From IMG/VR virus record IMGVR_UViG_3300044641_005651: a DNA stretch of 60,574 bases, one strand, 5' to 3'. Both the position numbers and the translations under genes were made by a program. This stretch comes from an uncultured virus (IMG/VR IMGVR_UViG_3300044641_005651). Lineage: Duplodnaviria > Heunggongvirae > Uroviricota > Caudoviricetes. This document shows, one piece after another, positions 4,985 to 60,574 of this stretch (within the stretch, counting starts at the first letter, position 1; each line of letters starts with the position of its first letter). Under the pieces are notes generated by a model. That model did not search any database, had not been told where the DNA came from, and saw only the letters and a program-made list of their open reading frames with translations.

Positions 4985-5838
4985 TGGGTAAGGTATCAAA
5001 ACTAGCAGAGATGATACCTAACGGTAAACCCTCTGTAACACCTGACCCAAATAATCCGGGGCAGATGCACATAAACATTGAAGAACTGCAGAAACACAAC
5101 CTGTTTTTTGCAACTCCATGTTATGGTGGACAGCTAACAGATCAGTTTTTCTTATCAATGTTTAGGCTTACTCAAGCTCTAAATCATTACAAGATTAATT
5201 ACAGAATCACTACTCTTAGAAATGAGAGCCTAGTGCCTAGAGCTAGAAATATCTTAACAGCAATGTTTCTAGAGAGTGATTGCTCTCACCTAATGTTCAT
5301 AGATGCAGATATTGAATTCGAGCCAGATTCAGTAATCAGAATGTTAGCAATGAATAAGCCATTAATTGCAGCAGCTTATCCTAAGAAAACAGTTGATTGG
5401 GAGAGTGTAAGAAGAGCAGCTATCGAAGGAAAAGAGGATATCTCTAAGTACAGTGCTCAATATGCTATAAATCTTAAGTTCAAAGATCCTAGAACTAGAG
5501 AACTTAATGTAGATAACGGAGCTATAGAAGTAATGGATGCTTCTACCGGATTCTTCATGGTGCAAAGAGTTGTCTTTGACAAGATGATTCAAGCATATCC
5601 AGAACTACATTATAAAAATGATAGTTCTATTGATCCTAAGTTCAATCCATTCTGTTATTCTTTCTTCGATACTATTCATGATCCAGATGATAACAGATAC
5701 TTATCAGAAGACTATACTTTCTGTCGTAGATGGCAGAAAATAGGCGGTAAGATTTGGCTTGATCCTAGCACTAGACTAAGTCACGTAGGGGCATTCACTT
5801 TCCCTGGAGACGTGAGCAGGATATTTGACAGACGTTAA
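4984..5838 (+). CDS. GT-A fold glycosyltransferase-like protein
   Basis: ATPCYGG, ESLVPRARN, DxD motif FIDADI, LSEDYTFC. Confidence 0.75.
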   Translation: MGKVSKLAEMIPNGKPSVTPDPNNPGQMHINIEELQKHNLFFATPCYGGQLTDQFFLSMFRLTQALNHYKINYRITTLRNESLVPRARNILTAMFLESDCSHLMFIDADIEFEPDSVIRMLAMNKPLIAAAYPKKTVDWESVRRAAIEGKEDISKYSAQYAINLKFKDPRTRELNVDNGAIEVMDASTGFFMVQRVVFDKMIQAYPELHYKNDSSIDPKFNPFCYSFFDTIHDPDDNRYLSEDYTFCRRWQKIGGKIWLDPSTRLSHVGAFTFPGDVSRIFDRR

Positions 5839-43908: not shown

Positions 43909-45184
43909 TAGTCGATCCTTGTGTGTTTGTATCCTCTAAGGGAGTAACTGTTGTAGGCTCTGTTCTATCTTCTTCTACCGGTCTACCGCCCTGAGAAGGG
44001 TCTGTAGCACTACCTACTATATTTTGAGGCACCCTTATCTTATCCATTTCTGGATCTGTAGATCTTGATAGTCTTAAACCTTCTCTAGCTTCGTTAGGAG
44101 ATATGATACCTCCATTTACTAGAGTAGTATAATACATAGCCTGAGTTTTATTATCTGGTTGTAGAGCAGAGATCGCATACTTATCTGGATATATTTTTAC
44201 ATCTCCCGCAAAGTATAACTGAAAGGCGCTACAATAACTATGTAGTATAGGTAGAACAACGTGATTATATAGAAGTCTTTCGTTTACTTCTATGTTAGCA
44301 TTATTACCGCTTTTTAGTAAGACATAAGGTACACCTAACGCCTTACACATATCTTGCTGTAATCTATCAACTGAAGCTTCGAAATCTAGTTCTCTGAAGT
44401 TGATGTTACTAAACTTTTCAATTTTTAAACCACCGTCTAGGATGGCTGGACTTCTAGCTCCCTGAAATACGTTAGAATAAGTATTTCTCCAGGCTTCTAG
44501 TAGTCTTTCTTTTACCTTCTGACTTAGTACAGAATCTGTCTGTAAAACCATGCCAGGTATTGCATTATTTTTGAAGAACTGTCTTTGGAAGTCTGTTAAA
44601 GCATAATACAGCTCTATCAGTCTTCTAAGAGGCTTTAACCTAGAGGAACCTCTAAAGATTGAATCTTCATTATCTGATTTTACATGGATAATCTCATCCG
44701 GGTCAAAGTTTATATTATTAACTTTTGGCTTATCAAAACCGTAAAGAACCGAACCACTTCTGAGTTGATATTGATAATTTTTAACGAAAGTCTTTTCATC
44801 GGGCTGAATAGCTACTTCGTTAGCAGGTAATGCATATAGAGATGTTCCATCATAGTAAAAAAAGGCATTACCATCTAGCATAAAATCTAGGAAAGATCTG
44901 CGAAATATTCTATTTCTATCTTCAAAAGGATTAGGAGTTATATTTAAAAGTTTATTTAATTTTTTAGGAGCTGCACCACCGTCTATGGTCAATGGCACAT
45001 TTGCACAAGCGTTGATAATAATGTCTACAGCGCGACGTATTACTTCTACGTCACGATAAGCTCTTTCAAAATCAACTATTGTTTCAGGTACTTGATAACC
45101 AGCGTCTCTAGCGATAGAGGGCTGAACTGGATTTAGCTTTTCAGCCACCCATGCTCTAGTACGTCCTAAAAATGTATCACTCAA
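43901..45184 (-). CDS. Portal protein
   Basis: LLNITPNPF, LDGNAF, FFKNNAIPG, ILDGGLK, GGIISPNEAR; TTG start with GAGG SD. Confidence 0.93.
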   Translation of the reverse strand: MSDTFLGRTRAWVAEKLNPVQPSIARDAGYQVPETIVDFERAYRDVEVIRRAVDIIINACANVPLTIDGGAAPKKLNKLLNITPNPFEDRNRIFRRSFLDFMLDGNAFFYYDGTSLYALPANEVAIQPDEKTFVKNYQYQLRSGSVLYGFDKPKVNNINFDPDEIIHVKSDNEDSIFRGSSRLKPLRRLIELYYALTDFQRQFFKNNAIPGMVLQTDSVLSQKVKERLLEAWRNTYSNVFQGARSPAILDGGLKIEKFSNINFRELDFEASVDRLQQDMCKALGVPYVLLKSGNNANIEVNERLLYNHVVLPILHSYCSAFQLYFAGDVKIYPDKYAISALQPDNKTQAMYYTTLVNGGIISPNEAREGLRLSRSTDPEMDKIRVPQNIVGSATDPSQGGRPVEEDRTEPTTVTPLEDTNTQGSTNG

Positions 45185-45202
45185 GGTTATACCTCATACA
45201 AT

Positions 45203-45231
45203 ATGATAACAGTGTATAATATTGTTGTCTA
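45203..45231 (-). promoter_or_regulatory. Sigma70-type promoter for head genes
   Basis: TAGACA-17 bp-TATCAT with extended TG and A-rich upstream. Confidence 0.65.
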
Positions 45232-45252
45232 AACTTTTTTATTTACTTTGTC

Positions 45253-46515
45253 TTATCCGTAGATACTTACTTTATTTTTAGCGTGTGTATAGATAGCGTA
45301 TCTAAGTGCATCACAACAATGAGAAGCCCAATCATGTAGAGGTTTTTCTTTCTCACCTCTATCATTCCATCTATATGCACACATAGACTGATAGGTTTTA
45401 GGAACCGTAGAGCTAAAAACTAATCTATTATGTTCAAGTAAAACTTGTAAATGCGTTATACCTTCATTTTGATACTTATTAGCGTTTTCGCAGTAAATAT
45501 CATATTCATATGCAAGGTCTGCTTTCATTTGCTGAGCCGCACTATCTATGTAGATAGAATTAACTCCCCAATGATCTATAAGTTCTCTAAAATGTTCTGC
45601 ATGAGTAGAGGTAGTAGCTTCTTTACTAATATACTCATCTACTACATAGAAATTCTCACCATCTGTAGCCACTACTAAGAATACGGTTTCGTCTCTATAT
45701 CCAAGGTCTAATCCACCGATAAAATCAAATCGACTATCTTTAGGTTGTATATCAGACAGGTCTAATAAATGTCTAGTCTCATCCACTGCATATATCTGAC
45801 CTTCGAAAGTAGACCACTCACATTCATACTCTTGTTTAAAGAGCTGTTCAGACATAATACTACGAGCTTCTTCGATATCCGTTATTGAAAGACGTGGATT
45901 AGCTCTCCAAGTATATAGAGAGCTACCCCACTCAGAATAGCGCTCGTCAGGACCACGATTAAAATACTCATAGATGTAATTGTTTTTTCCGCGAGGAGTA
46001 GTAATAAAGAGAGCCCTAGAATCATTAAAGGTAGAAAGAGCAGGGCGTAAGTCTCTGGTAAAATACTCATCATCATCTATGACTGCTGCCTCGTCTACAA
46101 TTAAAAAATTAGCCGCTCTACCAACAAGAGAGTCTCTATTGTTAGCAGAAAGCAGCCTAAACGTAGAACCATTAATAAGTTTTATTACTTTATCTTTTTG
46201 ATTGAAACGATCACATTCTATCTTAAGTTCTTGTATTAAATCTGTTACATAATCCCAAATAATAGAACTTAGGGTAAAGTTAGGAGCCACTACAATAACT
46301 TGTTGATTAGGCTCAAGTAGTTTAGCTAGTGCAAGGATAGATGCGCCAAAGCTCTTACCTGTACGACGCGCAGCAATATGCACCCAAAATCGGTGTTCTT
46401 CAAGGCCTTTAAAAAGACCCCATTGAGAATCGTTAAATATTACTTTTTCATCTCTAGCATACCTAGAGGGTATTTTTTCAAGTAACTTCTGAATATTAAG
46501 TTTAAAAAACGGCAT
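45253..46515 (-). CDS. terL: Terminase large subunit
   Basis: ARRTGKS, IVDEAA, ITTPRG, GLDLGYRD, HCCDALRY. Confidence 0.95.
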   Translation of the reverse strand: MPFFKLNIQKLLEKIPSRYARDEKVIFNDSQWGLFKGLEEHRFWVHIAARRTGKSFGASILALAKLLEPNQQVIVVAPNFTLSSIIWDYVTDLIQELKIECDRFNQKDKVIKLINGSTFRLLSANNRDSLVGRAANFLIVDEAAVIDDDEYFTRDLRPALSTFNDSRALFITTPRGKNNYIYEYFNRGPDERYSEWGSSLYTWRANPRLSITDIEEARSIMSEQLFKQEYECEWSTFEGQIYAVDETRHLLDLSDIQPKDSRFDFIGGLDLGYRDETVFLVVATDGENFYVVDEYISKEATTSTHAEHFRELIDHWGVNSIYIDSAAQQMKADLAYEYDIYCENANKYQNEGITHLQVLLEHNRLVFSSTVPKTYQSMCAYRWNDRGEKEKPLHDWASHCCDALRYAIYTHAKNKVSIYG

Positions 46516-46793
46516 TAAATAAGTCTAAATGTTTTGAGTATAAAAATGAAGAACGTAAACGTTCCAGCTCCTGCTCCTAGTAACCAGACTGTAGTAGAGA
46601 TAGATGTTTTACCTTGCACGGCTATAGTAGACAATGTTTCTAGTTTAGCGGCAAGAGCGGCTATCTGACTATTACTAAATTCTAATTTTTCTAAAATCTG
46701 TTCATATCTTAAAGTGCATAGAGCCTCGTGAGTCTCTAATCTAGCCTTATTATTATAGGCAATTTCTTTAATCTTATCTACATCATCACTCAT
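46515..46793 (-). CDS. Small coiled-coil protein with C-terminal TM helix (possible holin/XhlA-like)
   Basis: HEALCTLRY motif, coiled coil, hydrophobic C-terminus. Confidence 0.6.
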   Translation of the reverse strand: MSDDVDKIKEIAYNNKARLETHEALCTLRYEQILEKLEFSNSQIAALAAKLETLSTIAVQGKTSISTTVWLLGAGAGTFTFFIFILKTFRLI

Positions 46794-47449
46794 TGTAAAT
46801 GCCTCATAAGTTCTTTGACAAGATGGCTTCTAACAACATCATCTTGATAAAAACGCACTATTGATACGCTGGCACAATTAGACAATCGTCTAACTGCCCA
46901 CTCTAATCCATTATCATGTCTAAGATCACTTTGATCGAGATCTCCCGTAATAGCTACTTTTACACCTTCACCAAACCTAGTTAAAAACATCATCATCTGA
47001 TCTCGGGTGCTATTTTGAGCCTCGTCTAGGATGACAAAGCTCTTATTAAAAGTTCTACCACGCATGAATGCTAGTGGAGCTAGTTCTATCTCGCCAGACT
47101 GTATCATCGAATCTAGCTTCTTAACGCCAAACCTCTGTTCAAGGCAATCGAACAGAGGTCGCATATAAGGATCTAATTTTTCTTCAAGAGTTCCAGGTAG
47201 AAAGCCAAAACTCTCATTGGTAACTGCAGGTCTTACTAGGATAATCTTATCTACTAGGCCTCGCTCGTATTCCCAAGCTGCTTGATATGCTGCTATATAT
47301 GTTTTACCGCTTCCGGCGCTGCCTAATCCGATGGTAATCGGATAGTCTTGTAAGCTGCTGTAGTATCTTCTTTGATTTTCTGTTTTAGGTATAAGACTTT
47401 TTTGATACCTAGGTTGTTCTTCAGGTTGTTGCTTGTACTTTTTAGACAT
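46790..47449 (-). CDS. phoH: PhoH-family ATPase
   Basis: GSAGSGKT, GFLPGTL.EK, AFMRGRTF, DEAQN, GDLDQSD. Confidence 0.95.
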   Translation of the reverse strand: MSKKYKQQPEEQPRYQKSLIPKTENQRRYYSSLQDYPITIGLGSAGSGKTYIAAYQAAWEYERGLVDKIILVRPAVTNESFGFLPGTLEEKLDPYMRPLFDCLEQRFGVKKLDSMIQSGEIELAPLAFMRGRTFNKSFVILDEAQNSTRDQMMMFLTRFGEGVKVAITGDLDQSDLRHDNGLEWAVRRLSNCASVSIVRFYQDDVVRSHLVKELMRHLQ

Positions 47450-47485: not shown

Positions 47486-47500
47486 ATGTTAATTATTTAA

Positions 47501-48136
47501 TTAAGAAGATTTAAACCTTAGGTAAGATCTTTCTATGGAATCCCATTGCAGATTTAATATTTTTTTAATTTCTTCTTTTATCTCTTCTGCATTATCAGGA
47601 AGATCACTAAAAGTATGATCTGTATCTTTTATAAAGCCTAAGTCTTCGTATATTAAATCTAAATTATAAGTAAAAGGTAAGTTATTAAGTAAAAAATCAT
47701 TTCTTAATATACCACTAGATACATAAACTAAATGTTTTAAATCTATAGGTATGGAGTACACTTGTTTAGTTTCAGTTTTTAATTTAGCATATTTTTCTCT
47801 TTTATCAGCTACATATAGACTCAATATCTGTTCTACTTTATTTCGTCTATTTAGCTTTATTTTAAAATAAGAACTTTTAGCCATCTGCTCATAACAATTA
47901 AATTCTGTAATCTGACCGGCCATAAATTTTAAAACAAAATCTTTTCTTTTACTCAAAATAAAATTAATAAAATCTTTTTTATGTTGAGGGAAAGATAAGA
48001 CGTTATGATTATCAAAAGGTTCTATAAAACATTTAAGACCGTATTTATTAGCTAGATGAAACGCTAATGCGGTTGATCCAGATCTACAATTTGCTATGAT
48101 AATTATAGGAGCAGAATTAATACAGATATCAATCAT
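47501..48136 (-). CDS. Sulfotransferase-like protein (Stf0-like)
   Basis: 5'-PSB-like IIANCRSGSTAL, EPF, 3'-PB-like LNRRNKVEQILS, YEDL. Confidence 0.7.
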   Translation of the reverse strand: MIDICINSAPIIIIANCRSGSTALAFHLANKYGLKCFIEPFDNHNVLSFPQHKKDFINFILSKRKDFVLKFMAGQITEFNCYEQMAKSSYFKIKLNRRNKVEQILSLYVADKREKYAKLKTETKQVYSIPIDLKHLVYVSSGILRNDFLLNNLPFTYNLDLIYEDLGFIKDTDHTFSDLPDNAEEIKEEIKKILNLQWDSIERSYLRFKSS

Positions 48137-49392
48137 GAAAAGTATTTTATGTAATATCTTTTACTAGGTAAGCCTTTACATAAATTATGTAAAAAATCTC
48201 TTTTATCTACGTATTTAAATAAATTCTGATATAAGAAATCTACAAACTTATCATAATTTATAGAAGCTAAAGAATTTTTACTATCTACATACAGTTTCAT
48301 ATTAAGAGGTTCTACCATATCTACATATCCAGGAATTATACCAGTTTTACTAAGTTCTTTTAATATAGGATAATCATCGTATCTACTTAGCAAATCACTT
48401 ATTTTTAAACCCATATAAGGTAATTTTGTTTTAAAACTATATAAAACCTTAGCAAGTTCGTTTTCATTTTTTCTACTAGAAGCTGGAGATTTAGGATTAT
48501 TAAAAAAATCTTTAGAAAAATTTTTATGAATAACGTGCGCTCTTTTTAAAAACATATCTGCAAAGCATGGGTGTATATAAAATAATTCATGATTATTAGG
48601 AATATTTTCTGTTGTTAATAAATGCTGTAAATCAATTCTACTGCGAATAGTATGATCTTCTAAAACAAAAAATACGCCTGTATCATCATAGACCAGGTGT
48701 GGTTTTTCTAATCCCCATATGTGAGCAGTATTCTTTTTCTGCTTTAAATCTTTGCATTCTTTAGAAAAATTAGGATTTCTAGATCTAACTATATGTCTAT
48801 GAGTTAACATAACACTAGCATTTCCCTTTATATCTTCTAAAAAATTTTTTTCATTTATATTTTCCCAGAATGTTTTATGTATTTTATAAAAATTGTCTAT
48901 ATAAGTAATTTTTGTAGCAGGAGAATATGTTTCTACTAGATATTTTGCTATAGGAATTGCACTTCTTTGTGCTTCGTAAAACTCTGGAAACATAGCAAAA
49001 GTGGTTGAATCGTTGTTATATAGAGAATCAATAGTACCTTCGTCGAAATGACTATAGATAAAAATCTCATCCAAAAAAATACCATTAAGCATAAAAGTTT
49101 CTAGAATTTGGTGACTATCAGGACCTCCACTATAATTAAGTATCAGATAGTCGTAATTATTTCTTAAATGAATAGCTCTATCCAGATAAAATTCTTGAAG
49201 ACTTTTTTCTGGCTCTACTAAGAGGTCTAATCTATCTAACGCCATTTCAAAATTAAATAAACACCAACTTATATTTTTAGTTATATCTTTCCCATTGGAA
49301 GCCATATATGCTGCTGCAGCAGCAAAAATTTTACTATTATATTTATGGTCTTTATATTGGTAAAAATTATAATATGGATGTGTTTCTATCAT
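48133..49392 (-). CDS. PP-loop adenine nucleotide alpha-hydrolase-like protein A
   Basis: YDYLILNYSGGPDS, GLEKP, ELFY. Confidence 0.75.
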   Translation of the reverse strand: MIETHPYYNFYQYKDHKYNSKIFAAAAAYMASNGKDITKNISWCLFNFEMALDRLDLLVEPEKSLQEFYLDRAIHLRNNYDYLILNYSGGPDSHQILETFMLNGIFLDEIFIYSHFDEGTIDSLYNNDSTTFAMFPEFYEAQRSAIPIAKYLVETYSPATKITYIDNFYKIHKTFWENINEKNFLEDIKGNASVMLTHRHIVRSRNPNFSKECKDLKQKKNTAHIWGLEKPHLVYDDTGVFFVLEDHTIRSRIDLQHLLTTENIPNNHELFYIHPCFADMFLKRAHVIHKNFSKDFFNNPKSPASSRKNENELAKVLYSFKTKLPYMGLKISDLLSRYDDYPILKELSKTGIIPGYVDMVEPLNMKLYVDSKNSLASINYDKFVDFLYQNLFKYVDKRDFLHNLCKGLPSKRYYIKYFS

Positions 49393-49498
49393 TTGTATAA
49401 TAAATCTTATGTATAATCAAGATACATAATAAACATAAAATTATAATATTTATTTCGCTCGATAAAAATATAGTTAACTCTCCTTTAGATAGCATCAT
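49367..49498 (-). CDS. Possible 43-aa single-TM peptide
   Basis: MMLSKGELTIFLSSEINIIILCLLCILIIHKIYYTNDRNTSIL; AGGA SD; fills the gap. Confidence 0.35.
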   Translation of the reverse strand: MMLSKGELTIFLSSEINIIILCLLCILIIHKIYYTNDRNTSIL

Positions 49499-49507
49499 AA
49501 GTCCTAC

Positions 49508-50365
49508 TTAAAATCTAGATAAAAACTTATTAAATAATGTAACCCTCTCTTCTTCAGTTTTATAACTAATTAAAGAATCATCGTAACCTCTTTTTTGTCG
49601 TAAACTTACAGATTCTAGAGAACTCCATGATCTATGTAATCTATCTCTAAAGTTTTTTATCTGTTCGTTTGATAGGTTTTTATGTAGAATAACAGATTCT
49701 TCGTATAAATTATCGTACAACATCTTTGAGCTTTGAATGGTAGGTATAGAAGTATTGTCTAACTGTGAAACATTCCAAATACACTTATTTTTAAAAAATT
49801 CTAACCCACTTAAGCCTGTCCTAAATCCGAAATCTAATTCTTGTGATTTTGCAAGCGTCATAAATTCAGCGTTAGTATTAATTCTAACATACTTTAATTT
49901 AATTCCGTATATATCTGAAAGTTTAGTTAAGAATTGTTCTGGTAGGAATGTAGTAGTTGCAGTAATTCCTATAACATGGCTACTATTCGGTTTTATCAAA
50001 TCTTCCCACGATTTAGAACTAATAGAACATAGTTCAACAGGTGCAGAATAATTTATAAATAGTAAATTATCACTATTAAATTTCATATAGCACAATAAAT
50101 TGTTTTTATCTGAGGAACCATCTATATTAGTAGTTAAAACATACATAGTAGGTTGATTAGAATTATTCCATAGTATTTTACTCAAAGCACAATTTGAATT
50201 AGTATGCGTAACACTTATTTTATAGTCAGAAAACTGTTTAACATATTCTTGTAGAAGTTGACTGTTAATACCTGTAGAGGATCCATTATTGATAAGCATC
50301 AGTTCTTTTGCGAAAACCGGTTGCATAAAAATAGTTATAATAAACGTAAGTATAATTTTTAACAT
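49508..50365 (-). CDS. Exported solute-binding-like protein (divergent TctC/Bug-like), paralog 1
   Basis: Signal peptide (VFA-K); clear paralog of 55831..56709; family inferred from size and TctA context. Confidence 0.55.
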   Translation of the reverse strand: MLKIILTFIITIFMQPVFAKELMLINNGSSTGINSQLLQEYVKQFSDYKISVTHTNSNCALSKILWNNSNQPTMYVLTTNIDGSSDKNNLLCYMKFNSDNLLFINYSAPVELCSISSKSWEDLIKPNSSHVIGITATTTFLPEQFLTKLSDIYGIKLKYVRINTNAEFMTLAKSQELDFGFRTGLSGLEFFKNKCIWNVSQLDNTSIPTIQSSKMLYDNLYEESVILHKNLSNEQIKNFRDRLHRSWSSLESVSLRQKRGYDDSLISYKTEEERVTLFNKFLSRF

Positions 50366-50375
50366 ATAACACCTC

Positions 50376-51584
50376 TTAATAATCCTCTAAAGTTGTTAAA
50401 ATATATTCTTTTGTAAATTCTATAAATCCATCATTTTCGTAAAAAAAATAACTATCTATATTGTTTTTTACGTATCCTATACCGTCTCTCCAACAAGAAC
50501 CTTGAACAGTATTTGGCGGACATAGTAAATGAAACCAAATATCTGCTTCTGCATGCCAATCTAGTAATCCTTTTTTTGCCTGAAACCACTCTTTATTCCA
50601 TGTTCTAGGATATAAAAGAAGTCTGGCATTCTCTTCTAAGAACTGTTTAGCATTAGCAGCTACTGCAAGACTTTGAAATCTATGAATACTAACCATCTCT
50701 CGATTGACTGGTGAAGATACAATCCAATTTTTTAACGTATGTGCCTGTTTACTAATTAACGCACAGGCGTCTGGGCTAGTATAGAAAAACTCAACTTGAG
50801 CGTTTGAATAGTTTTGTATTTCAGCATAGAATAGATTAAGATTAAAGCGTCTATCTGCAAAAGTCATGTAAACTTGATTATTTTTTATTTTTATACCAGG
50901 TTTATCTAAACCTATCAAAATACCTACTCGATTATTACCATCAATCATTTTTTTAAAATGATCAAAACTAGTAAAGTTATATTTGGCAGAATCTACGGGA
51001 TTTAATTCTTCTCTAACATTTAAAATCCAATCTCCTGATTGAAATTTTGAAAAAATATTTATAGTATGCTGAGTAGTATCAAATAGATTAATCTTAATAT
51101 TAGGATCTAATATTTGGATTTCTTTTAATCTCGGAAATATTTGTAGTACAGTTTCTGTATGGGGTTGAATTTTTGGGTCTTTAGGATCTATATTATACTG
51201 ATTAAGAATTTTTATGCCTGTTTCGACGTGGTGAACAACAATTTCATCAATTTTTAAATTTTGCTCTAAGAAAGCCATCACCATATTATGGCTATCGCAT
51301 CCTCCACTATAGTATATTACTATGTAGTCGTATTTTTGCCTAAGATATCTGGCTCTTTCGTAGTATAAATAATCAAGACTTTGCTCAGGCTCCTTAGTCC
51401 AGTCGTAAGTGTCAAAAGCTTCATCATTAAAGTGCCATTTAATTAGTTGATCCGGGGTAATTAAATTTCTATATGGATCTATTTTTGGACTTTTTAATAG
51501 TTCGGAAGCAAACAATAGGGCTTGTATCTTTTTAAAAAATACTTTATCTCCAACTGAATAATAACCATATAGTTTTTTATCCAT
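50376..51584 (-). CDS. PP-loop adenine nucleotide alpha-hydrolase-like protein B
   Basis: YDYIVIYYSGGCDS, GLDKP, EFFYTSPD..KQAH. Confidence 0.78.
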   Translation of the reverse strand: MDKKLYGYYSVGDKVFFKKIQALLFASELLKSPKIDPYRNLITPDQLIKWHFNDEAFDTYDWTKEPEQSLDYLYYERARYLRQKYDYIVIYYSGGCDSHNMVMAFLEQNLKIDEIVVHHVETGIKILNQYNIDPKDPKIQPHTETVLQIFPRLKEIQILDPNIKINLFDTTQHTINIFSKFQSGDWILNVREELNPVDSAKYNFTSFDHFKKMIDGNNRVGILIGLDKPGIKIKNNQVYMTFADRRFNLNLFYAEIQNYSNAQVEFFYTSPDACALISKQAHTLKNWIVSSPVNREMVSIHRFQSLAVAANAKQFLEENARLLLYPRTWNKEWFQAKKGLLDWHAEADIWFHLLCPPNTVQGSCWRDGIGYVKNNIDSYFFYENDGFIEFTKEYILTTLEDY

Positions 51585-51589
51585 ATATT

Positions 51590-53155
51590 TTACTTATATA
51601 TTTCACTTACGTTCATATACCAACCCGCAGCTGTTAAGTTAACTTTTTGTAACATTTTACTAGATGCAACTTTAAATACAGGCTGGGCAAGATTGATAAA
51701 TATAGATTCATTTATCATCCGTTTCTGATATTGTTCGTATAACGCATTTCTACGAATCACGTCAGATTCTTCAGCTGCAGTATCTGCAAGACTTACAAAA
51801 TCTTTAGTGGGTTCCCAATGCATTCTCTTTGCAATTCTTGTAACAAAGGGTCTTGTCCAAAGATTTGCATCAAGTGCATCAATCGTATAAGATGCAATCG
51901 CCGATTGTAATTTAGCATTTCTATATTGAGTTATTAATGTTGCTGCATCCATCGGATGTAGAACAACTTCTACATTGATCTTTGCAAGATCTGATTTGAT
52001 TTTCTGCGCCAATAAAGAGGAACGCACATTCAGTGTTGGCGAAGTTGAGTAGTGAAAAGTAAATTGAAATCCGTCTGGGTTGTTTGATGCTTTTAAATAT
52101 TCTTTAGCCTTATTCAAATCCAACTTATAACCAAACTTCTCAGTTTGTTCTTTAGTAGTTCCACCAATTCCTATTGGAATAATAGATGGTGGCCTAACTG
52201 CATACCCACCTAATAAGTGCGTAATAATTCCATCATAGTCAATTGCGTGTGCAATTGCTAGCCTTGCATTTCTATCTGCAAGGGCTTTATTTAAGTCAGG
52301 GGTTGTTGTAAGAACCATGTACACGTAATCAAGGCTTGGTTCAGAAACAATGTTCATATTACGCTTCTTTGCTATCTCAACTTGTTCATTAGATAAATTA
52401 AAGGCAATATCAATTTCGTTTGTCTGCAGAGCTAAAAGTTGATTTGCACCTTCAGGAATGTGACGAATAATAACACGATCAAAAAATACTGGTTTGTACC
52501 AATGAACATTCTTTTCCCAAATAACAACTTCATTTCTGGTCCATCTAGTCATCCTATAGGGCCCAGATCCGAAAGAGTTATTATCAAAATACTTGGTTGC
52601 AGTATCTTTAGAGTGCGTCTGATCATCACTTCTGCCGCCAACAGCTTCTACTTGTTTCTTTGAATAAATTCCAAGTGATACGGTCGTTAGAATTGGCAAG
52701 ATGTTTTCTTTTGGATTGACAACGAAGATATCAACAGTTTTATCATCGACAACAAGAACTTCTTTCACATTATCAACAAACTCTTTTGGTTGATAATTCA
52801 TATTTTTAATTCTATCAAATGTGAATTTGACATCGTGTGCAGTAACAGATTCGCCGTTCCAGAATTTGGCATTATCACGAAGATAAAATCTCCAAGATTT
52901 TCCTGAGTCCAAAGTCTCCCACTTCTTTGCAAGTGCAGGCTTTAGAACCTCATAATTGTCTGGAGTAGCAGTAACTAAAGTTTCGTACACATTTCCTATT
53001 GTAAAGGGTGTGGAGATATCTGCTTGACGAGAAGGATCATAGGTAATTCCGTCTGAGATATCCATGCCGATAATCAGAGTTTTATCTCTTGTTTGAGCTA
53101 AAGCTGTGTGGTTAAATAAAACAATACTAGTAATTAAATAAATAAATTTTAACAT
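51590..53155 (-). CDS. ABC peptide/nickel substrate-binding protein (family 5)
   Basis: Signal peptide, VYETLV, PALAKKWE, FWNGESVTAHDVKFTF, GSGPYRM, RLAIAHAID. Confidence 0.92.
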   Translation of the reverse strand: MLKFIYLITSIVLFNHTALAQTRDKTLIIGMDISDGITYDPSRQADISTPFTIGNVYETLVTATPDNYEVLKPALAKKWETLDSGKSWRFYLRDNAKFWNGESVTAHDVKFTFDRIKNMNYQPKEFVDNVKEVLVVDDKTVDIFVVNPKENILPILTTVSLGIYSKKQVEAVGGRSDDQTHSKDTATKYFDNNSFGSGPYRMTRWTRNEVVIWEKNVHWYKPVFFDRVIIRHIPEGANQLLALQTNEIDIAFNLSNEQVEIAKKRNMNIVSEPSLDYVYMVLTTTPDLNKALADRNARLAIAHAIDYDGIITHLLGGYAVRPPSIIPIGIGGTTKEQTEKFGYKLDLNKAKEYLKASNNPDGFQFTFHYSTSPTLNVRSSLLAQKIKSDLAKINVEVVLHPMDAATLITQYRNAKLQSAIASYTIDALDANLWTRPFVTRIAKRMHWEPTKDFVSLADTAAEESDVIRRNALYEQYQKRMINESIFINLAQPVFKVASSKMLQKVNLTAAGWYMNVSEIYK

Positions 53156-53221
53156 TTTTTCCTCTATAGGAAATATACTATTTTTAATAGCACTAGACTA
53201 CAAAAAATATAAAGAGTGTCC

Positions 53222-53518
53222 TTAAGATGCTGCAAAAGATTTAGTAATCTCTATAAGGAATCCCATATTTTGTAGTCTTACGTTAAATTCGTTTAACTCT
53301 GTTAAGTATACTCGATTAGTAAAATCATCATTTTTCTCTTTTGATTCCCAAAAAGTCACATATGAAATACTATTTGGACCAACTATAATTTCTCTAGAGA
53401 TTATATTCTCATTCAGTAATTCTATATAACCCAAGCCTGAATTAGCAAGTTTGCAAGCTTCATTTGCGCTCTCTAAAGTTATATTACTTTTCATTAACGT
53501 GTATTGAACTCTATACAT
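53222..53518 (-). CDS. Small hypothetical protein (possible dimeric alpha/beta barrel)
   Basis: GGAG SD before ATG 53518; YVTFWESKE. Confidence 0.55.
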   Translation of the reverse strand: MYRVQYTLMKSNITLESANEACKLANSGLGYIELLNENIISREIIVGPNSISYVTFWESKEKNDDFTNRVYLTELNEFNVRLQNMGFLIEITKSFAAS

Positions 53519-54488
53519 TAGATTCTCCAATTAAATTTTTAAGTATTTCCCATTCAAAAGTATGTAAAAATACTTTTGTATTTTTTGTTTTGTTATTATT
53601 AGCTATATAAACAGCATTTTCCTTCAAATTAGATAAATAAGCTTTTACATCTTCTGAAACTTCTTTATTAAATTTTTTCGCATCTATAAGAAACACAAAA
53701 CAATTAGAATAGAATCTATTTCTATCAATTTTATCTGTAGAAGGTATAAAAATATTACACATAAGCTCTATTAATAATCCTATGTTAAACAGTTTATGAG
53801 AGTCAAATATTATACCTGCTTGGCTCTTTAGAGGGTTATTATTTTCAGCATCATACATATGTTTTGGATCTAAAGTATGTGTTCCGTTTAAAGATAGAGG
53901 CTTTTCTAGTAATTTATTCTGCCGCAGTAAATGTTTAATATTATTCTCACTATTACTAGGTAATGTCATATCAAAACAAAAATTATTAGTACAAAAACCT
54001 GATAAACACATTGTGCTTAGTTTTTTAGTAGATCCCCCATAAGGTATTACTAACTTACTACCTTCAATGTTACTTACTAAAAACCCAAAATAATTAGATA
54101 AATCTATACCTTGCCAAACAGATTTTATGTATCCTAAATGTCCCATATTTTTTACAAAAAACATAGAAGAGCCTAAGCTATCAGTTATTTTTAAATGTTT
54201 CTTTAAGAGGGAGGATAAAACATACTGACCAAAGGTTTTATCAGCATCATATATATAAACATTATTAGTAAAATCTACATACTTTATATTCTTAGTTTTA
54301 TTGAGTATACCTTTTTTTAACCAGTTTTCATACGTTGTTAATAATTGTATTCCGTGCGAAGGGTGCTTGTTTTCGTGTGCTATAACAATGCTTCTGGCAA
54401 CAGAATGGCTAACTTCTTGATCTACGTGAAGTTTCTGTAAATATTTACTAATTAAATCCTGTAATAATTCCGTAGGTATTTCGATCAT
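53511..54488 (-). CDS. Divergent Ldh_2 family (type 2 malate/L-lactate) oxidoreductase-like protein
   Basis: SHGI, DADKTFGQ, NMGHLG, VIPYGG, FDM, HK..IGLLIELM in family order. Confidence 0.7.
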   Translation of the reverse strand: MIEIPTELLQDLISKYLQKLHVDQEVSHSVARSIVIAHENKHPSHGIQLLTTYENWLKKGILNKTKNIKYVDFTNNVYIYDADKTFGQYVLSSLLKKHLKITDSLGSSMFFVKNMGHLGYIKSVWQGIDLSNYFGFLVSNIEGSKLVIPYGGSTKKLSTMCLSGFCTNNFCFDMTLPSNSENNIKHLLRQNKLLEKPLSLNGTHTLDPKHMYDAENNNPLKSQAGIIFDSHKLFNIGLLIELMCNIFIPSTDKIDRNRFYSNCFVFLIDAKKFNKEVSEDVKAYLSNLKENAVYIANNNKTKNTKVFLHTFEWEILKNLIGESNV

Positions 54489-54495
54489 ACTAAAA

Positions 54496-55362
54496 CTATC
54501 CTTTAATAATATTTAAATAATCAACATAAGTATATTCTTTAATAATATTTTTAGAATATAATAAAGGTCTAACTCTCCTTTTAGCAGCTTCGACTTCTTT
54601 TGTTATTTTTTCAAATCCTGTGATTTTTATACGTGAAGACAAATTTGGAAAATGCGTAGAGTAAAAAACGTTTTTAAATATATCCCAATCTCGTTGAGAT
54701 ACTTTTTTATTAATAAAGTTTCTAAAATTATTGTCTGCTAACCAAGATGCTATAATATTAGGATCATATCTGTAAAATGGTATAAAAGTTTTACAATATT
54801 CTCTAAATCTACCTACATACTCAGACTCCTCATATATAAAAAGATCCCTGTCATATAGGTATCTAAAATTAAAATCTCCAAGGCCAAATACATCTACAGA
54901 ACTATTTGTAGATTGTTCAAGAATTTTTAATAGTAAAGTATATTGTGGATCTAACGTAGACAATCTAATAGCATATATTTCATATTCATTTTTTAAAAAA
55001 TCTTCATAATCTATATCAATAATTTCATAGTTAATTTTATATAATTTACACGCAGCTAGTCCTATTTCAAAATCAAAGTCATTTAATAAGTTTTTAAATC
55101 TAATTAGTTTCACATTTATTTTATGCTTATTATCGCTATGAATAAACCCTAAAAGAACAGCTTGACTATCTAATCCTCCAGACAAAAATAAATTAACATT
55201 TTTATGATTTGTAATAATTTTTTCCGCGGTGCTTATAACGGCATTTTTAAGAAGTGAGATACTAGTAGCTTTTCCAAATTTTATAGAGTAATCTATACGT
55301 TCTGGAAAGTAATAAGATTTATCATCCCATAAATGTTGATAATGGTTATTCTCAGTAGTCAT
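54496..55362 (-). CDS. PP-loop adenine nucleotide alpha-hydrolase-like protein C (short type)
   Basis: LFLSGGLDSQ, C-terminal RIKITGFE. Confidence 0.72.
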   Translation of the reverse strand: MTTENNHYQHLWDDKSYYFPERIDYSIKFGKATSISLLKNAVISTAEKIITNHKNVNLFLSGGLDSQAVLLGFIHSDNKHKINVKLIRFKNLLNDFDFEIGLAACKLYKINYEIIDIDYEDFLKNEYEIYAIRLSTLDPQYTLLLKILEQSTNSSVDVFGLGDFNFRYLYDRDLFIYEESEYVGRFREYCKTFIPFYRYDPNIIASWLADNNFRNFINKKVSQRDWDIFKNVFYSTHFPNLSSRIKITGFEKITKEVEAAKRRVRPLLYSKNIIKEYTYVDYLNIIKG

Positions 55363-55838
55363 ACTAATTCCTTATTTAAGATTACATACTCTATTGACCT
55401 ATTATTTTTTAAAGAGGCTATTAATCTTGGAGAGTTATTTTTGTTTACACTAGCTGATATTCGTTTAGCTCCTTTACTTTTAAAATAACTTTCTACGTAG
55501 TTAAATAATATAGTATTAAAACCTTTCTGTCTATGTTTAGGATCTGTAAAAGTCATTAATATCCAACCGGTTCTGTTTCTAGCAGAGTAAAAACAAACTA
55601 TTCCACTTACTACTTCATTGTTACTATTCTTACAATAAAAAACCTTGCACTTATCTATATCTAAACACCAAGACAGAGAAGAAGGGCACCAATCCTTTTC
55701 TGTAATCTCTACCATTGTTTTTAAAAATAGCAGAGTAGTTTCGCTGTTCATAAAATCACTGTCATACCAGATTTCAAAATCTTCTCCATCTATAGTAACG
55801 GTATTTTTTTTCTCTAATATAGGAGTAGTTTCAGTCAT
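55359..55838 (-). CDS. GNAT acetyltransferase
   Basis: Motif A TFTDPKHRQKGF, motif B VNKNN. Confidence 0.8.
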   Translation of the reverse strand: MTETTPILEKKNTVTIDGEDFEIWYDSDFMNSETTLLFLKTMVEITEKDWCPSSLSWCLDIDKCKVFYCKNSNNEVVSGIVCFYSARNRTGWILMTFTDPKHRQKGFNTILFNYVESYFKSKGAKRISASVNKNNSPRLIASLKNNRSIEYVILNKELV

Positions 55839-56709
55839 TTTTTAGAATCTCTATTAATTGTGTTAATCTATTTTTATACTCTTGTTCACTATTAAAATCA
55901 ACTAAAAAGTTATCATAGCCTCTCCGTCTGTGTATTTGTAGCATATCAGAAGAATTCCAAGCCTCTTTTAGCTTATTAATTATTTTAGGACTATCGGAAG
56001 GGTTAATGTTTTTAGCAATCAAGTAAGCATTGATAGAAAACGTGTGATTAGCCTTTTCAAACTCAGGTAAAACATCTTTTATAGTAGGTAAATCTCTATG
56101 AGGTATACTGGACCATAGACACTTATCTTTAAATACCTCTAAGTCATATATACCAGATCTAAAAGCAAAATCTATTTCTTGAGCTTTTGCCATAGTTAAA
56201 ACAGCGCTAGAATTATTTACCTTAACTGTTTTTATTTTATTATTATATTTTTTAGATAAGATTTCAAACAGCTCCGCACTTTTATTTTCTGGATGTATAG
56301 CTACTGTACGTACAATATTAGGCCTTGTTAAATCTTCCCACGTCTTACTAGATACGGAGCAAAAGAAATAAGGGTTGGTATATACCCAAAAAATTATATC
56401 ATAAGTTTTTTCTTCTAAATAACAAGCCGTATTGTTTTTATCCGTTAATCCGTCAATTCCATGAGCAATTAACATCAATGTAGGAGTATTGCTATTTTGC
56501 CATAAAAGTTTAGCTAAGGCACAGTTTTGATTGGTAATAGCCACTTCTGTTTTAAGATCTGCTCTACTCAATGAGTCTGCAAATATTTTTGCTTGCTGAC
56601 CGTTTGTTCCTGTTACTGTTCCATTTGTTATCAATGTTATTTGAGTAGCGTGTGTGTCTTTTAAATAGAAGATACACATAAAAATTATTAAAAAAGTTTT
56701 TAGTAACAT
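55831..56709 (-). CDS. Exported solute-binding-like protein (divergent TctC/Bug-like), paralog 2
   Basis: Signal peptide; directly downstream of the TctA-like gene. Confidence 0.55.
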   Translation of the reverse strand: MLLKTFLIIFMCIFYLKDTHATQITLITNGTVTGTNGQQAKIFADSLSRADLKTEVAITNQNCALAKLLWQNSNTPTLMLIAHGIDGLTDKNNTACYLEEKTYDIIFWVYTNPYFFCSVSSKTWEDLTRPNIVRTVAIHPENKSAELFEILSKKYNNKIKTVKVNNSSAVLTMAKAQEIDFAFRSGIYDLEVFKDKCLWSSIPHRDLPTIKDVLPEFEKANHTFSINAYLIAKNINPSDSPKIINKLKEAWNSSDMLQIHRRRGYDNFLVDFNSEQEYKNRLTQLIEILKND

Positions 56710-56718
56710 AAAATCCTC

Positions 56719-58029
56719 TTATAGTATATAAATTTGATAAAATCTGTAAAAAAGCTGTTCTACATTGTTTTGAAGTAAAAAAGCATAGGTAAATGGTAAT
56801 AGATCTAATTTATTTAACAGTAACCCTAGTGAAAAGAAAAGAAAAAGAACAATTAAGTAAAAAGTTCCTTGACTTAGTTCAAAACCTAAGTAAAAAATAG
56901 ACGATATAACTAATCCAAAAATCAATATGGGTATATACGACGATAAGTTAGTTATAAACTTATTGAATTTTTTAAGACAAGTCCACGATAGGTAAAAAGC
57001 AATGGTATTAGTAGATAATAATAACAATAAAAGTATTGGGAAATTGTCGTATATAGTTTTCCAGTTAATAAAATTGTTACTAGAGGTTATAATCTCTAGT
57101 AGTACAAACTCGCTAGGAACTATAGCTACTCCTAAAAACAACAAAGGAACTAACACAGATATATTTGCTGAATTATTAGCAGATTCTGCTGCAGCAGCTT
57201 GAGCAACAAAATTATCAGGCCTTAATTTCTTTTCTATATTAAAAGCTAGATTGCTGCTTATTCCATTACCTATATAAGGTATTAATCCGCTTATAAAGCC
57301 AATTATAGAAGATCTTAATATAGTAACTAAATTCTTAGAAGAAGTTTTAACTAAACTGAAGTTTACCAGAAAACTGTTACTAGTCCCTTTCATATTTTTG
57401 AGTTTTTTAGTCATAAAATATAAGCTTGGTAAAGCGTATATGCCCATAATAGCAGGTAAGGCTGGTATCCCAGAGTATAGATAAGGGTTATTAAATGTCA
57501 TAAAACTTGAATTTGATATGTCATTATACCCTACCTTACCAAAAAACCAACCAACAAGCAATAAAATAATTGAAGTAACTATCTTATTGTCAGAATAAAG
57601 CACGCACAAAAAAAGCCCAACAACTGCAAAAAATAAGGAGAAATAGGATTTTAGATAAAAAATATTAGATAAGAAAAAATCTATACTAAAGTATAAAATA
57701 ACCAAAGATAATAAAGAAGCTATAAGACTACCGAATGCACATAGATAATATACCTCATTCAGCCTATTAGATTCCAATATTTTGTCTTTTATAGAAAATA
57801 GTGGTAAGCTAGTATTTTCTCCAGGTATGCCAAAAGTGAGGGTAGTTACGCTTCCAAAATACTGACTTATAGAAGAGGCCACACAGTAAAATATTATGCA
57901 AAAAATAAGAGACTGTGAGATTAAAAAGGGAAAGCATATTAATAAAAAAGAGGTAGTTCCTAAACCGGGTAAGAGACCTATTAATATACCGGCAATCATA
58001 CCAAAAAAAGAGGCGATAACATAATCCAT
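56719..58029 (-). CDS. tctA: Tripartite tricarboxylate transporter permease TctA-like
   Basis: GILIGLLPGLG, QYFGS...GIPGE, GFISGLIPYIG, AAAESANNSA; multi-TM. Confidence 0.85.
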   Translation of the reverse strand: MDYVIASFFGMIAGILIGLLPGLGTTSFLLICFPFLISQSLIFCIIFYCVASSISQYFGSVTTLTFGIPGENTSLPLFSIKDKILESNRLNEVYYLCAFGSLIASLLSLVILYFSIDFFLSNIFYLKSYFSLFFAVVGLFLCVLYSDNKIVTSIILLLVGWFFGKVGYNDISNSSFMTFNNPYLYSGIPALPAIMGIYALPSLYFMTKKLKNMKGTSNSFLVNFSLVKTSSKNLVTILRSSIIGFISGLIPYIGNGISSNLAFNIEKKLRPDNFVAQAAAAESANNSANISVLVPLLFLGVAIVPSEFVLLEIITSSNNFINWKTIYDNFPILLLLLLSTNTIAFYLSWTCLKKFNKFITNLSSYIPILIFGLVISSIFYLGFELSQGTFYLIVLFLFFSLGLLLNKLDLLPFTYAFLLQNNVEQLFYRFYQIYIL

Positions 58030-58033
58030 AATT

Positions 58034-59344
58034 TTATTTCAAATTTACATAAATTAGATTCTGTAAATCTCTCTCAGTTAAATCAGCTATTAGTTTTTTT
58101 TGATTTATATTTTGTCTTGTATTGATGTTAGTAATTTTTATTTCTTTGTTATATAGGTAGCCAATTTTGTAAAAGTTTTTAAGTCTAATTAATCCATCTG
58201 GAAAAGATAGATCATCTAAATAATATTGTATATATGGACTACAATGTTTTTTTACATAATCTAACCCAGATCTCCATAGAGAATGTTCAATAGTATTTTG
58301 TGATTGAGTTATAAACCAATAATCATTTTCTGCGTGCCAATCTAGCTGATTTTTATCTGATTGAAACCAGTCTTTATTCCAAGTTGTATATAAAATAGGC
58401 CTTAAAATTCTATCAGTAGCATGTCGATTGTCTTTTAATAAAATAGGGGACTCATGAAAAAATATTTGATAGTAACGATTTTTTTCAAGCCATTTTTTAA
58501 TGACGTGAGCTTGTTTACATAATAGATCACAAGCATCTGGACTCCAATAAAAATACTCTATAGTGCTATTAGTGTATCGGGTCAAATTTTCTCCAATAGG
58601 TATTTGATTAGCAGTTCTATCCGTAAAAACAAGCTCAACTAAATTAGTTGTTTTCTGTATTCTTATTTTAGCTTTATCCATTCCAACAATTATACCGATT
58701 TTTTTATTTACATCTAAGACTCTTTCAACGTTTGCAAATTTACATAGATCAAATCTAGATGCGTCAACCGGATTTAATTCTTCTCTAACTTTTAGTGTCC
58801 AGCTTTCATCGTTGTTTTTGGTAAAAAAATCAAAAACTGAATTTGATGTATCTATTACTGTAATTTTAGTTTTAGGAGATAGGTTAGATATTTCGGCCAA
58901 TCTAAATTTAGTCTGTAGCTCGAACTCAGCTTCATAGCAATATTTTGCAGATGTCTCGATCGGATCAACAATAGCAAAATTTTTCATTGCGTTGTGCATT
59001 CTTGTAACAACAATCTCATCAATAAATAAACCTTGTCTTAAAAAAGACATGATTATATTCCAACTATCAGCTCCGCCACTAAAACTTATAATTATATAAT
59101 CATATAGCTCCCGTAAATGTTTTGATCTTATATCGTATAATTCATCTAGTGAACTATCTGGCTCTATAGTCCAGTCATAATTATTAAAAGCTTCGTTATT
59201 AAAATTCCAAGTTATAAGCTGATATGGTTTAATATTCAATTTATGATCTAGCTTATTAAAAAGTTTAGTTGCAAACATACAAGCCTCAACTTTTGAATAA
59301 AATATTCTATCTCCGACTGTATAATACCCTAGCTTTTTATTCAT
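58034..59344 (-). CDS. PP-loop adenine nucleotide alpha-hydrolase-like protein D
   Basis: YDYIIISFSGGADS, GMDK, EYFYWSPD..KQAH. Confidence 0.78.
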   Translation of the reverse strand: MNKKLGYYTVGDRIFYSKVEACMFATKLFNKLDHKLNIKPYQLITWNFNNEAFNNYDWTIEPDSSLDELYDIRSKHLRELYDYIIISFSGGADSWNIIMSFLRQGLFIDEIVVTRMHNAMKNFAIVDPIETSAKYCYEAEFELQTKFRLAEISNLSPKTKITVIDTSNSVFDFFTKNNDESWTLKVREELNPVDASRFDLCKFANVERVLDVNKKIGIIVGMDKAKIRIQKTTNLVELVFTDRTANQIPIGENLTRYTNSTIEYFYWSPDACDLLCKQAHVIKKWLEKNRYYQIFFHESPILLKDNRHATDRILRPILYTTWNKDWFQSDKNQLDWHAENDYWFITQSQNTIEHSLWRSGLDYVKKHCSPYIQYYLDDLSFPDGLIRLKNFYKIGYLYNKEIKITNINTRQNINQKKLIADLTERDLQNLIYVNLK

Positions 59345-59784
59345 GACTTTGCCTTATAAGTTTTAAAAAGTATATCCCAAACAGGAGTAAAAACTCCAAA
59401 ATTTTTAGTATACTCAGAGTGATGAACTAAGTGCCATTTACCGCTTGTAAGAAATGGGTATACATCAAAATGATAGTTATGTTCTACTCTTTCTTGGATA
59501 CAAACAGCCCAAACATAATAGATTATGAATACAGTAAAATCTTGAAAAACTAAACACAATAATATTGTAGGTATTATTTCTATCAGCCATTGATCTATGG
59601 TGCTTCTCCAGGTATCAAAAAATAAGAAATAGTTTGACCAATGATGTCCTTTATTAGTTTGTTTATAGATCTGTAAATGGTGATCTTGATGATATTTCCA
59701 TAGAAATGGAACAATATGTGCTAACCTATGACAAAGGTATAATAATAGAGACCAGACTATTAGTTGAAATATTAAATACGTCAT
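59341..59784 (-). CDS. Sterol desaturase / fatty acid hydroxylase family protein
   Basis: His boxes HRLAH, HQDHH, HLVHH and NFG..WD.LF.T. Confidence 0.88.
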   Translation of the reverse strand: MTYLIFQLIVWSLLLYLCHRLAHIVPFLWKYHQDHHLQIYKQTNKGHHWSNYFLFFDTWRSTIDQWLIEIIPTILLCLVFQDFTVFIIYYVWAVCIQERVEHNYHFDVYPFLTSGKWHLVHHSEYTKNFGVFTPVWDILFKTYKAKS

Positions 59785-60574
59785 TCAGATATCCTGTTCA
59801 TTAAGACTTCTCTGGTGCCGAAAAATGTTTTTGTCTGTGGTCTGTGTTTTCTATTTATCTCTAACTGCTCGAGCATATCTTTTAATTTAGGGTTAAAGAA
59901 ATACTGCGGTCTTATTTTCGGCCTATATCTAACAGCAAATACTCTTTCTTTGTAATCTGCCCAAGTTAAATCTGTATCTCTGACAGCTGCTAAACTAGCA
60001 TAGGCTATTTGTGGAGTGTGTAGAAAAAAATTACATATCTTTGCGGTTGGAAAAAGAGTAGAACAATAAAAATCCCACTCAGGAAGATAGTAATTTTGTT
60101 GCGAGATTATATCTTCTCCATCTCCTAGTATATGTCCCCCATCAACCCAAAGTCCTTTTTCGCCCAAAACATATTCGCAAGAAAGATATTGAGCAGAGGG
60201 CCAAGCAGTTCCGTTTATAGTTTTATATATCTTATCATAGTATATACTTAGAAAGTCACTAAGAGATAGTTTAATAACTTTGGCTTCAATCTTCAGCTCT
60301 CTTAAAGCTTTATAAGCAAAAAGCCTTTCTATCTCCAAACCTTCGAGATCTATTAAAACAGGAACAAAATCTACTTGTAACTTATGTAACCTTCTGATAA
60401 TAAATTCAGAATCGTAACCTCCACTAAAGGCTACAAATATCTTTTGAGAAGCAATATCTTTTATTACATTGTCTACCGCAACATCAAAGGGAACTTTCTC
60501 AAAGCTAGTTCTTTTAATACTAGCTTTGAAATCAACGTTTGGATTACTCCATCTTTCTGAAATATTTGTAGTTA
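59781..60574 (-). CDS. PP-loop adenine nucleotide alpha-hydrolase-like protein E (5'-truncated by the window edge)
   Basis: The frame of ORF 59781..60338 stays open to the window end and contains IFVAFSGGYDSEF, which the ORF track missed. Confidence 0.75.
   Translation of the reverse strand, partial: TTNISERWSNPNVDFKASIKRTSFEKVPFDVAVDNVIKDIASQKIFVAFSGGYDSEFIIRRLHKLQVDFVPVLIDLEGLEIERLFAYKALRELKIEAKVIKLSLSDFLSIYYDKIYKTINGTAWPSAQYLSCEYVLGEKGLWVDGGHILGDGEDIISQQNYYLPEWDFYCSTLFPTAKICNFFLHTPQIAYASLAAVRDTDLTWADYKERVFAVRYRPKIRPQYFFNPKLKDMLEQLEINRKHRPQTKTFFGTREVLMNRISE

Follow-up and report, generated by a model that had tools for sequence, protein, structure and literature searches.

What a lytic phage might do with a long run of PP-loop enzyme genes, interleaved with transporters and tailoring enzymes, is the question raised by positions 47,501 to 60,574 of a 60,574-nucleotide stretch of DNA from an uncultured virus (IMG/VR record IMGVR_UViG_3300044641_005651), the whole of which is called the window here. 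The locus is real and holds a known kind of enzyme in an undescribed setting. In their structure models these enzymes fold like the ligase domain of asparagine synthetase, they recur in phages beside an exported TctC-like binding protein, and the cassette that carries them is swapped whole between strains of one phage species. The account that we tentatively prefer is that they join captured acids to amines.

Extent and gene content of the island

A first-pass annotation, made from the sequence by itself, described this region as 13 kb of co-oriented, often overlapping, AT-rich genes, and this is what we find. Fourteen open reading frames (ORFs) run on the minus strand from 60572 to 47501, overlapping at six of the 13 junctions and with a biggest gap of 115 nt, and the G+C content is 29.4% vs 36–37% in the rest of the window. 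All five of the SGGxDS genes that it counted are present, a six-frame count giving five within the island and none in the remaining 47 kb of the window. Its TctA-like permease, family-5 binding protein, Ldh_2-like protein, hydroxylase and GNAT protein are each matched by Pfam. The sulfotransferase call is a lead drawn from a motif and from Atlas neighbours, Pfam giving no match. The genes, with amino acid (aa) lengths and the main evidence for each, are as follows.

59781..60574 (-): short-class PP-loop enzyme 1, 267–270 aa in full, its start just outside the window; SGGYDS; short-class cluster
59341..59784 (-): FA_hydroxylase-family di-iron membrane protein, 147 aa, His-boxes present; PF04116, E 2.6e-15
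58034..59344 (-): long-class PP-loop enzyme, subfamily A, 436 aa; SGGADS; alignment A4 and tree
56719..58029 (-): TctA-like permease, 436 aa, about 10 hydrophobic segments; PF01970, E 1.2e-46, positions 2–416 of 423; ratio of nonsynonymous to synonymous substitution rates (dN/dS) 0.15
55831..56709 (-): divergent TctC/Bug-like binding protein 1, probably exported, 292 aa; profile comparison and hydrophobic N-terminus
55359..55838 (-): GNAT acetyltransferase, 159 aa; PF00583, E 8e-10
54496..55362 (-): short-class PP-loop enzyme 2, 288 aa, with the predicted fold of a stand-alone AsnB-type ligase; structure model and match given below
53511..54488 (-): Ldh_2-family oxidoreductase-like protein, 325 aa; PF02615, E 1.3e-30; 20–24% identical to the 10 listed bacterial/archaeal matches
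53222..53530 (-): 102-aa protein with weak kinship to a small island-recurrent family (profile E 5e-6 over about 40 residues) that is found in 13 of 49 locus groups (defined below)
51590..53155 (-): family-5 solute-binding protein, 521 aa; PF00496, E 3e-70
50376..51584 (-): long-class PP-loop enzyme, subfamily A, 402 aa, our main query; structure model and match given below; dN/dS 0.06–0.08
49508..50365 (-): divergent TctC/Bug-like binding protein 2, probably exported, 285 aa; profile comparison; dN/dS 0.18
48133..49392 (-): long-class PP-loop enzyme, subfamily B, 419 aa; SGGPDS; B clade with SH-aLRT 100 in a quick tree; dN/dS 0.12–0.15
47501..48136 (-): sulfotransferase-like protein, 211 aa; RSGST motif; Atlas neighbours at 0.95–0.98, some with sulfotransferase Pfam families; no Pfam match of its own
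47492..47537 (no strand): downstream edge of the replacement cassette; other strains (L086, L020, L003) are 99% identical from there on
43901..47449 (-): conserved flank with PhoH, a 92-aa membrane protein, a T5-like terminase and portal; family matches and terminase comparison

The expected continuation past the window was found on a 65.7-kb contig (L001/L083) that is identical across the island and reaches beyond the window's end. There it carries two further long PP-loop genes, two proteins of 150–170 aa, two 2-oxoglutarate (2OG) oxygenases, and Gly-rich and lectin-like fibre genes. Window and contig together give a full cassette of about 15.8 kb and 16 genes, seven of which encode PP-loop enzymes, lying between tail-fibre-like genes and PhoH/terminase. 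The terminase in the downstream flank is about 41% identical to those of T5-like phages, and the source virus is a lytic T5-like phage. The two 150–170-aa proteins (L083 6662–7623) are related to each other and belong to no known family; in 22 loci such proteins come after Gly-rich fibre genes, and often the next gene is a long enzyme. When the long enzyme was paired with the 150-aa protein that lies upstream of it, the predicted complex scored 0.00.

The best-matching sequencing runs are labelled lake water and drinking water, with five of 20 matching runs flagged as possible sources. Contigs from two metatranscriptomes cover 26 and 21 of 30 bins, such contigs proving neither transcription nor its level, and scans for promoters and terminators stayed at chance level (81 vs 77). 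As to lasso-peptide traits, no peptidase is present among the 14 genes and no gap exceeds 115 nt (the ORF list starts at 60 aa).

Two classes of PP-loop enzyme with an asparagine-synthetase-like fold

The five PP-loop proteins of the window are not the simple paralogs that they were first taken for. They form two classes, three long (402–436 aa) and two short (about 270–288 aa), and are 17–42% identical to the first of the five; the classes are homologous to one another (hhalign 97.2%). The SGGxDS loop sits after the first strand of a Rossmann-like domain, as in the PP-loop superfamily, and in alignment A4 the S, G and D of the loop, the glycine of GxDKP and a C-terminal Lys do not vary. Pfam and NCBIfam gave no match to any of the five, and PHROG gave one weak match to an unknown family.

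Structure models of both classes are confident, with predicted local distance difference test (pLDDT) values of 90 for the long and 91 for the short enzyme, and among 48,161 PDB chains the top match for both is asparagine synthetase. For the short model the match has Z 14.8, with a root-mean-square deviation (rmsd) of 4.0 over 259 aligned residues; for the long model it has Z 11.1, rmsd 5.5 and 279 aligned residues, and for helical proteins the structure comparison tool rates a Z below about 13 as no more than moderately informative. Next for both classes come beta-lactam synthetase, carbapenam synthetase and TsnB9, and NAD and GMP synthetases, LarE, TilS and QueC score lower. Thus, the models indicate that both classes fold like the asparagine-synthetase ligase domain. 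From the range of PP-loop enzymes first considered, the asparagine-synthetase branch stands, whereas QueC, the tRNA thiolases and PAPS reductase fall below it in the structure comparison. A QueC profile matches the PP-loop region only (PADLOC E 0.006, and likewise in relatives), with structural Z values of 5.4–7.4, under those of AsnB.

Enzymes of the asparagine-synthetase branch adenylate a carboxylate and then transfer it to an amine. An intact glutaminase domain is excluded here because too few residues (55–95) precede the PP-loop; there is also no N-terminal Cys and no glutaminase Pfam match. A search of the PDB sequences with the long-class profile found nothing, and the strong viral matches in Foldseek are solely uncharacterised proteins of uncultured phages.

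In a quick tree of 80 proteins (157 prior to de-duplication) the five long enzymes of this strain fall in two deep subfamilies, and their closest relatives lie in other phages. The cassette holds seven enzymes of three subtypes. Recent tandem duplication was rejected on this placement and on the lack of near-identical repeats.

Distribution of the long class

The long-class profile collects 1,924 representatives at 50% identity. Its carriers include T5-like phages and phages of 200–350 kb, and the class has so far turned up only in phage DNA. It has no match in any of 50,697 cultured-phage records. A cellular origin was considered and rejected, since 185,579 genomes, scanned with exact patterns that may miss distant relatives, gave one locus, with the gene content of a misbinned phage contig. 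This phage-like contig (L084, in a Haliscomenobacter metagenome bin) has two long PP-loop and two TctC genes and is probably misbinned. We also note a third SGGxDS class of about 415 aa, whose neighbours in L031, L059, L060, L061 and L071 are a DctP-type binding protein and an uncharacterised conserved protein of 255 aa.

Recurrent neighbours and transport partners

Of 305 confirmed viral stretches the best 80 were retained, which tilts the neighbourhood sample toward close relatives; the 81 loci, the window's own included and unequal in length, form 49 groups at 90% identity. The annotation had named a failure of the genes to co-occur in other phages as grounds for abandoning its proposal, and the genes do co-occur. 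With neighbours annotated through cluster representatives, a short PP-loop enzyme is a neighbour in 31 groups, TctC in 30 and a second long PP-loop enzyme in 19; a nitronate-monooxygenase-like flavoprotein (20), radical SAM (16), GNAT (14), desaturase (13), hydroxylase (8), TctA (7) and family-5 (3) genes follow. Ldh_2 and the sulfotransferase each occur in one group, namely the window's own. The recurrent core is therefore a long PP-loop enzyme, a short PP-loop enzyme and an exported TctC-like protein. In 16 of the 49 groups the flavoprotein is at most two genes away from the long enzyme, and in eight the same holds for a DUF2061 membrane protein (the set L022, L035, L040, L043–L047, L058, L059, L077).

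Proximity of TctC to the long enzyme is far above chance: of the 26 TctC matches in 23 phage records, 15 are at most 1 kb from a long PP-loop gene, the expected number being 1.15 and the maximum over 20,000 shuffles being 7, and without three near-duplicate genomes the count is 12 of 20. The gene order PP-TctA-TctC recurs in L096 and L098, with a TctA identity of 28–31%. In a reciprocal scan 17 of 20 TctA loci have a long PP-loop gene nearby, a count biased upward by patterns that were built from PP-linked TctA. In the 197-kb record G006 (L008 12522–13819) TctA is frameshifted and split, and it is intact in the relative L010.

The two TctC-like proteins of the window have no Pfam match, yet the early call is upheld by a profile comparison, in which their cluster matches a cluster of phage TctC proteins from which both are absent (hhalign 98.2%, E 5e-14) and unrelated clusters used as controls stay below 1%. 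Of 49 binding proteins 45 begin with a hydrophobic stretch, as do only five of 140 PP-loop enzymes, which suggests that the binding proteins are exported. The closest named cellular matches of the binding protein are 41–44% identical and come from Alphaproteobacteria and Burkholderiales.

A replacement island under purifying selection

Comparison with near-identical strains places the edges of the cassette. L086 and L020 are 99% identical to the window from 47492 downward (L086, 99.2%), and on the upstream side L086 is 95% identical as far as about 63,300, a position obtained by extrapolation. Between the two flanks L086 has four genes (long PP-loop, TctA, long PP-loop, TctC-like; about 4.9 kb) in place of 16 genes and about 15.8 kb, with 66–83% DNA identity to the window within the cassette or no match. 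Further versions of the cassette are found at an end of L003 (98.8% identical in the flank) and of L018. Synonymous divergence among strains is 0.02–0.14 in PhoH, terminase and portal and from 0.75 to saturated in the cassette. Because a different cassette, of four genes, is present in strains that match the window at 99% identity on the PhoH side, the site is a replacement-type flexible island that is swapped whole between strains of one phage species.

Exchange also reaches further, as the family-5 protein gene and the neighbouring long PP-loop gene share 78% DNA identity over 2.7 kb with L004, a distant large phage in which the gene context (primase, ThyX, ribonucleotide reductase) differs. 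Neutral dN/dS and a chimeric join with host DNA had been named as further grounds for giving up the proposal. Among the 14 genes, five have orthologs at 60% identity or above; their dN/dS is 0.06–0.18, the values near saturation being rough, and these five testable genes are under purifying selection. Chimerism was rejected, since L002 and L012 are 99.9% identical across the junctions and X9, an independent 5.5-kb contig whose run is not flagged as a possible source, extends from portal to the last PP-loop gene.

Known systems compared

The closest tested enzyme is CmoY, a phage DNA glycine ligase that couples glycine to a carboxyl group (PMC12783734). CmoY of Synechococcus phage S-B43 is similarly a phage-encoded, stand-alone asparagine-synthetase-like ligase, and its 271 aa are the size of the short class; in S-B43 a gene of this length is flanked by one with a methyltransferase domain and one for a DNA-cytosine methyltransferase. 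CmoY differs in matching Pfam Asn_synthase, whereas the window enzymes match no Pfam family, and in lying between CmoA and a C5-methyltransferase homolog, neighbours that the window enzymes lack; these have up to seven copies and transporter neighbours instead. There may be relatives among the ligase clusters of Supplementary Fig. 8 of that paper. Asparagine synthetase B, beta-lactam synthetase, carbapenam synthetase and TsnB9, the best structural matches, have the PP-loop ligase domain in common with our enzymes, but they are about 500–580 aa long vs 270–436 aa here, are 6–12% identical, and only a remnant of their N-terminal domain aligns.

TctABC and orphan Bug systems resemble the transport genes in that TctA is above the Pfam cut-off and the binding proteins are homologous to TctC. 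In contrast to them the cassette has no TctB, and its binding proteins are very divergent, have conserved cysteines, lack G[GS]xxD and are linked to ligases. Viral tctA genes whose role is described as unknown appear in SUP05 phages (PMC4164917) and in PMC6359870. Metaviromic islands (PMC3909814) and the receptor-binding/receptor-blocking locus of T5 are also variable among near-identical phages and lie beside fibre and terminase genes; here, by contrast, an enzyme and transporter set varies rather than an adhesin. Our literature search, with subscription papers mostly outside its reach, returned no description of the long-class family or of the cassette.

What the cassette may do

It is quite possible that the cassette encodes ATP-dependent acid–amine ligases that are fed by captured solutes and yield tailored amides, as mix-and-match modules and not as one pathway. 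The exported TctC-like and family-5 proteins would, by their families, bind solutes in the periplasm, and these would enter through the phage TctA or host permeases. The seven enzymes, in the cytoplasm, would use ATP to adenylate a carboxylate, a chemistry suggested by the modelled fold; since the glutaminase domain is not intact, the nucleophile would be an amino acid, another amine or ammonia, as in CmoY and beta-lactam synthetase. GNAT, the di-iron hydroxylase, the Ldh_2 reductase and the sulfotransferase might then tailor substrates or products. Because desaturase and hydroxylase neighbours recur in relatives, the gene content points to acyl or lipid-like amides. The paralogs are old modules that were acquired separately and probably have different substrates, and the cassette would therefore be a toolkit rather than one linear pathway. 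We infer that uptake is coupled to ligation. The first-pass proposal of an uptake-and-modification or biosynthetic cluster is partly supported, since none of the three grounds that it gave for abandonment came true, while the idea of one cluster with one product is unsupported because only the core recurs and near-identical strains carry a different cassette.

Several observations weigh against this account. The Z score of the long model is in the range given above as moderately informative, and Foldseek found no PDB match at E <= 0.001. The motif G[GS]xxD, which we take to be the carboxylate-binding motif of Bug proteins, is present in none of 10 window-type binding proteins vs 28 of 39 in the other cluster, so that the ligand of the former may not be a carboxylate. 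TctA is missing from three of four near-complete carriers, and TctB was found neither in the cassette nor in any of five records, though a host TctB could substitute; import would therefore require host parts. In G007 and G025 a lone long PP-loop gene lies in a tail-fibre module, with no TctC match in the record. No specific substrate or product emerged from the analysis.

The position of the cassette suggests a rather doubtful alternative, in which the ligases and tailoring enzymes act either on the Gly-rich tail fibres encoded next to them, as decorators, or on the host surface, remodelling it so that the receptor is masked; the binding proteins would supply the decorating group or block entry. 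The cassette comes after fibre-like genes, a fibre-assembly-like gene and two 2OG oxygenases, and it occupies the site, directly upstream of the terminase genes, at which T5_ev219 has its receptor-binding and receptor-blocking genes; receptor blocking is the role of T5's blocking protein. Lone long PP-loop genes also occur within fibre modules (L013–L017, L024–L030), and host-recognition genes and Fe(II) oxygenases abound in variable phage islands (PMC3909814). However, a neighbouring fibre gene is 99% identical while the cassette changes, fibre neighbours occur in just seven of the 49 groups, and the enzymes mostly stand among desaturases, flavoproteins and radical SAM genes, distant from tail genes. 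Whole-cassette swapping within one species, and the retention of TctC without a permease in near-complete genomes, would also fit ligases whose product is a diffusible amide, either a signal or a metal chelator, with the adjoining exported protein as its private receptor and alleles as strain-specific "dialects". We consider this quite improbable: the similarities of adjacent enzyme and TctC do correlate (Mantel rho 0.52, n = 26), but the correlation is explained by shared ancestry because that for the short enzyme is stronger (rho 0.72), and no exporter, regulator or lysis–lysogeny switch was seen in the cassette. A bolder reading, which we regard as unlikely, is of a widespread virus-only chemistry whose amide product (signal, chelator or surface tag) is particular to each strain and has a matching exported receptor; the alleles would be exchanged under frequency-dependent selection, and in this T5-like phage the system would sit at T5's receptor-binding/receptor-blocking site.

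A similarly slim chance attaches to the cassette being a landing pad for unrelated accessory genes, with joint function limited to modules of two or three genes. Ldh_2 and the sulfotransferase are private to the window's group, the closest relatives of the window paralogs are in different phages, a 2.7-kb piece is shared with a distant phage and the G006 TctA is frameshifted, all in favour of this; yet the same families regroup around the enzyme in unrelated phages, and coupling between the genes is tight, with conservation wherever a test was possible. Slimmest of all are the prospects of nucleic-acid hypermodification, CmoY-like on DNA or TilS/TtcA-like on tRNA. CmoY is the same size as the short class and matches its profile (hhalign 96.2%, E 2.7e-9, 108 columns), but the match is restricted to the N-terminal PP-loop half, and the long class reaches 28%. 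A C5-methyltransferase occurs in three of 25 viral records, always at least 30 kb from the long PP-loop genes, in one of four near-complete records and not in the cassette, although in the incomplete genome of the window's phage a partner might lie further off. The tRNA-modifying folds give Z 6.3–8.7 vs 14.8 for asparagine synthetase, and transporters and membrane desaturases fit poorly.

The long class is common in aquatic phage genomes, unstudied, and without a Pfam or NCBIfam model. What this locus contributes is a single cassette with seven ligases, the replacement of its alleles within a phage species and an exchange of genes with a distant phage. As it is chiefly the cassette that distinguishes natural strains, its substrate range and the rationale for swapping are directly testable. 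If acid–amine ligation fed by captured solutes is the correct account, lytic phages make and diversify small-molecule amides, and their enzymes offer an additional source of ATP-dependent amide ligases.

Other features of the phage

Three further features lie outside the island. A 953-aa protein (41047–43908, minus strand) has matches in head maturation protease families as well as in major capsid families and is a protease–capsid fusion, these being separate genes in T5. The fibre-like proteins at 15436–17412 (minus strand) and L083 2014–3078 have a common repeat unit of 11–22 residues, with a tail collar domain in relatives. Amid the replication genes, 4984–5838 (plus strand) encodes a 284-aa protein that is glycosyltransferase-like by eye and belongs to PHROG 1574, of unknown function.

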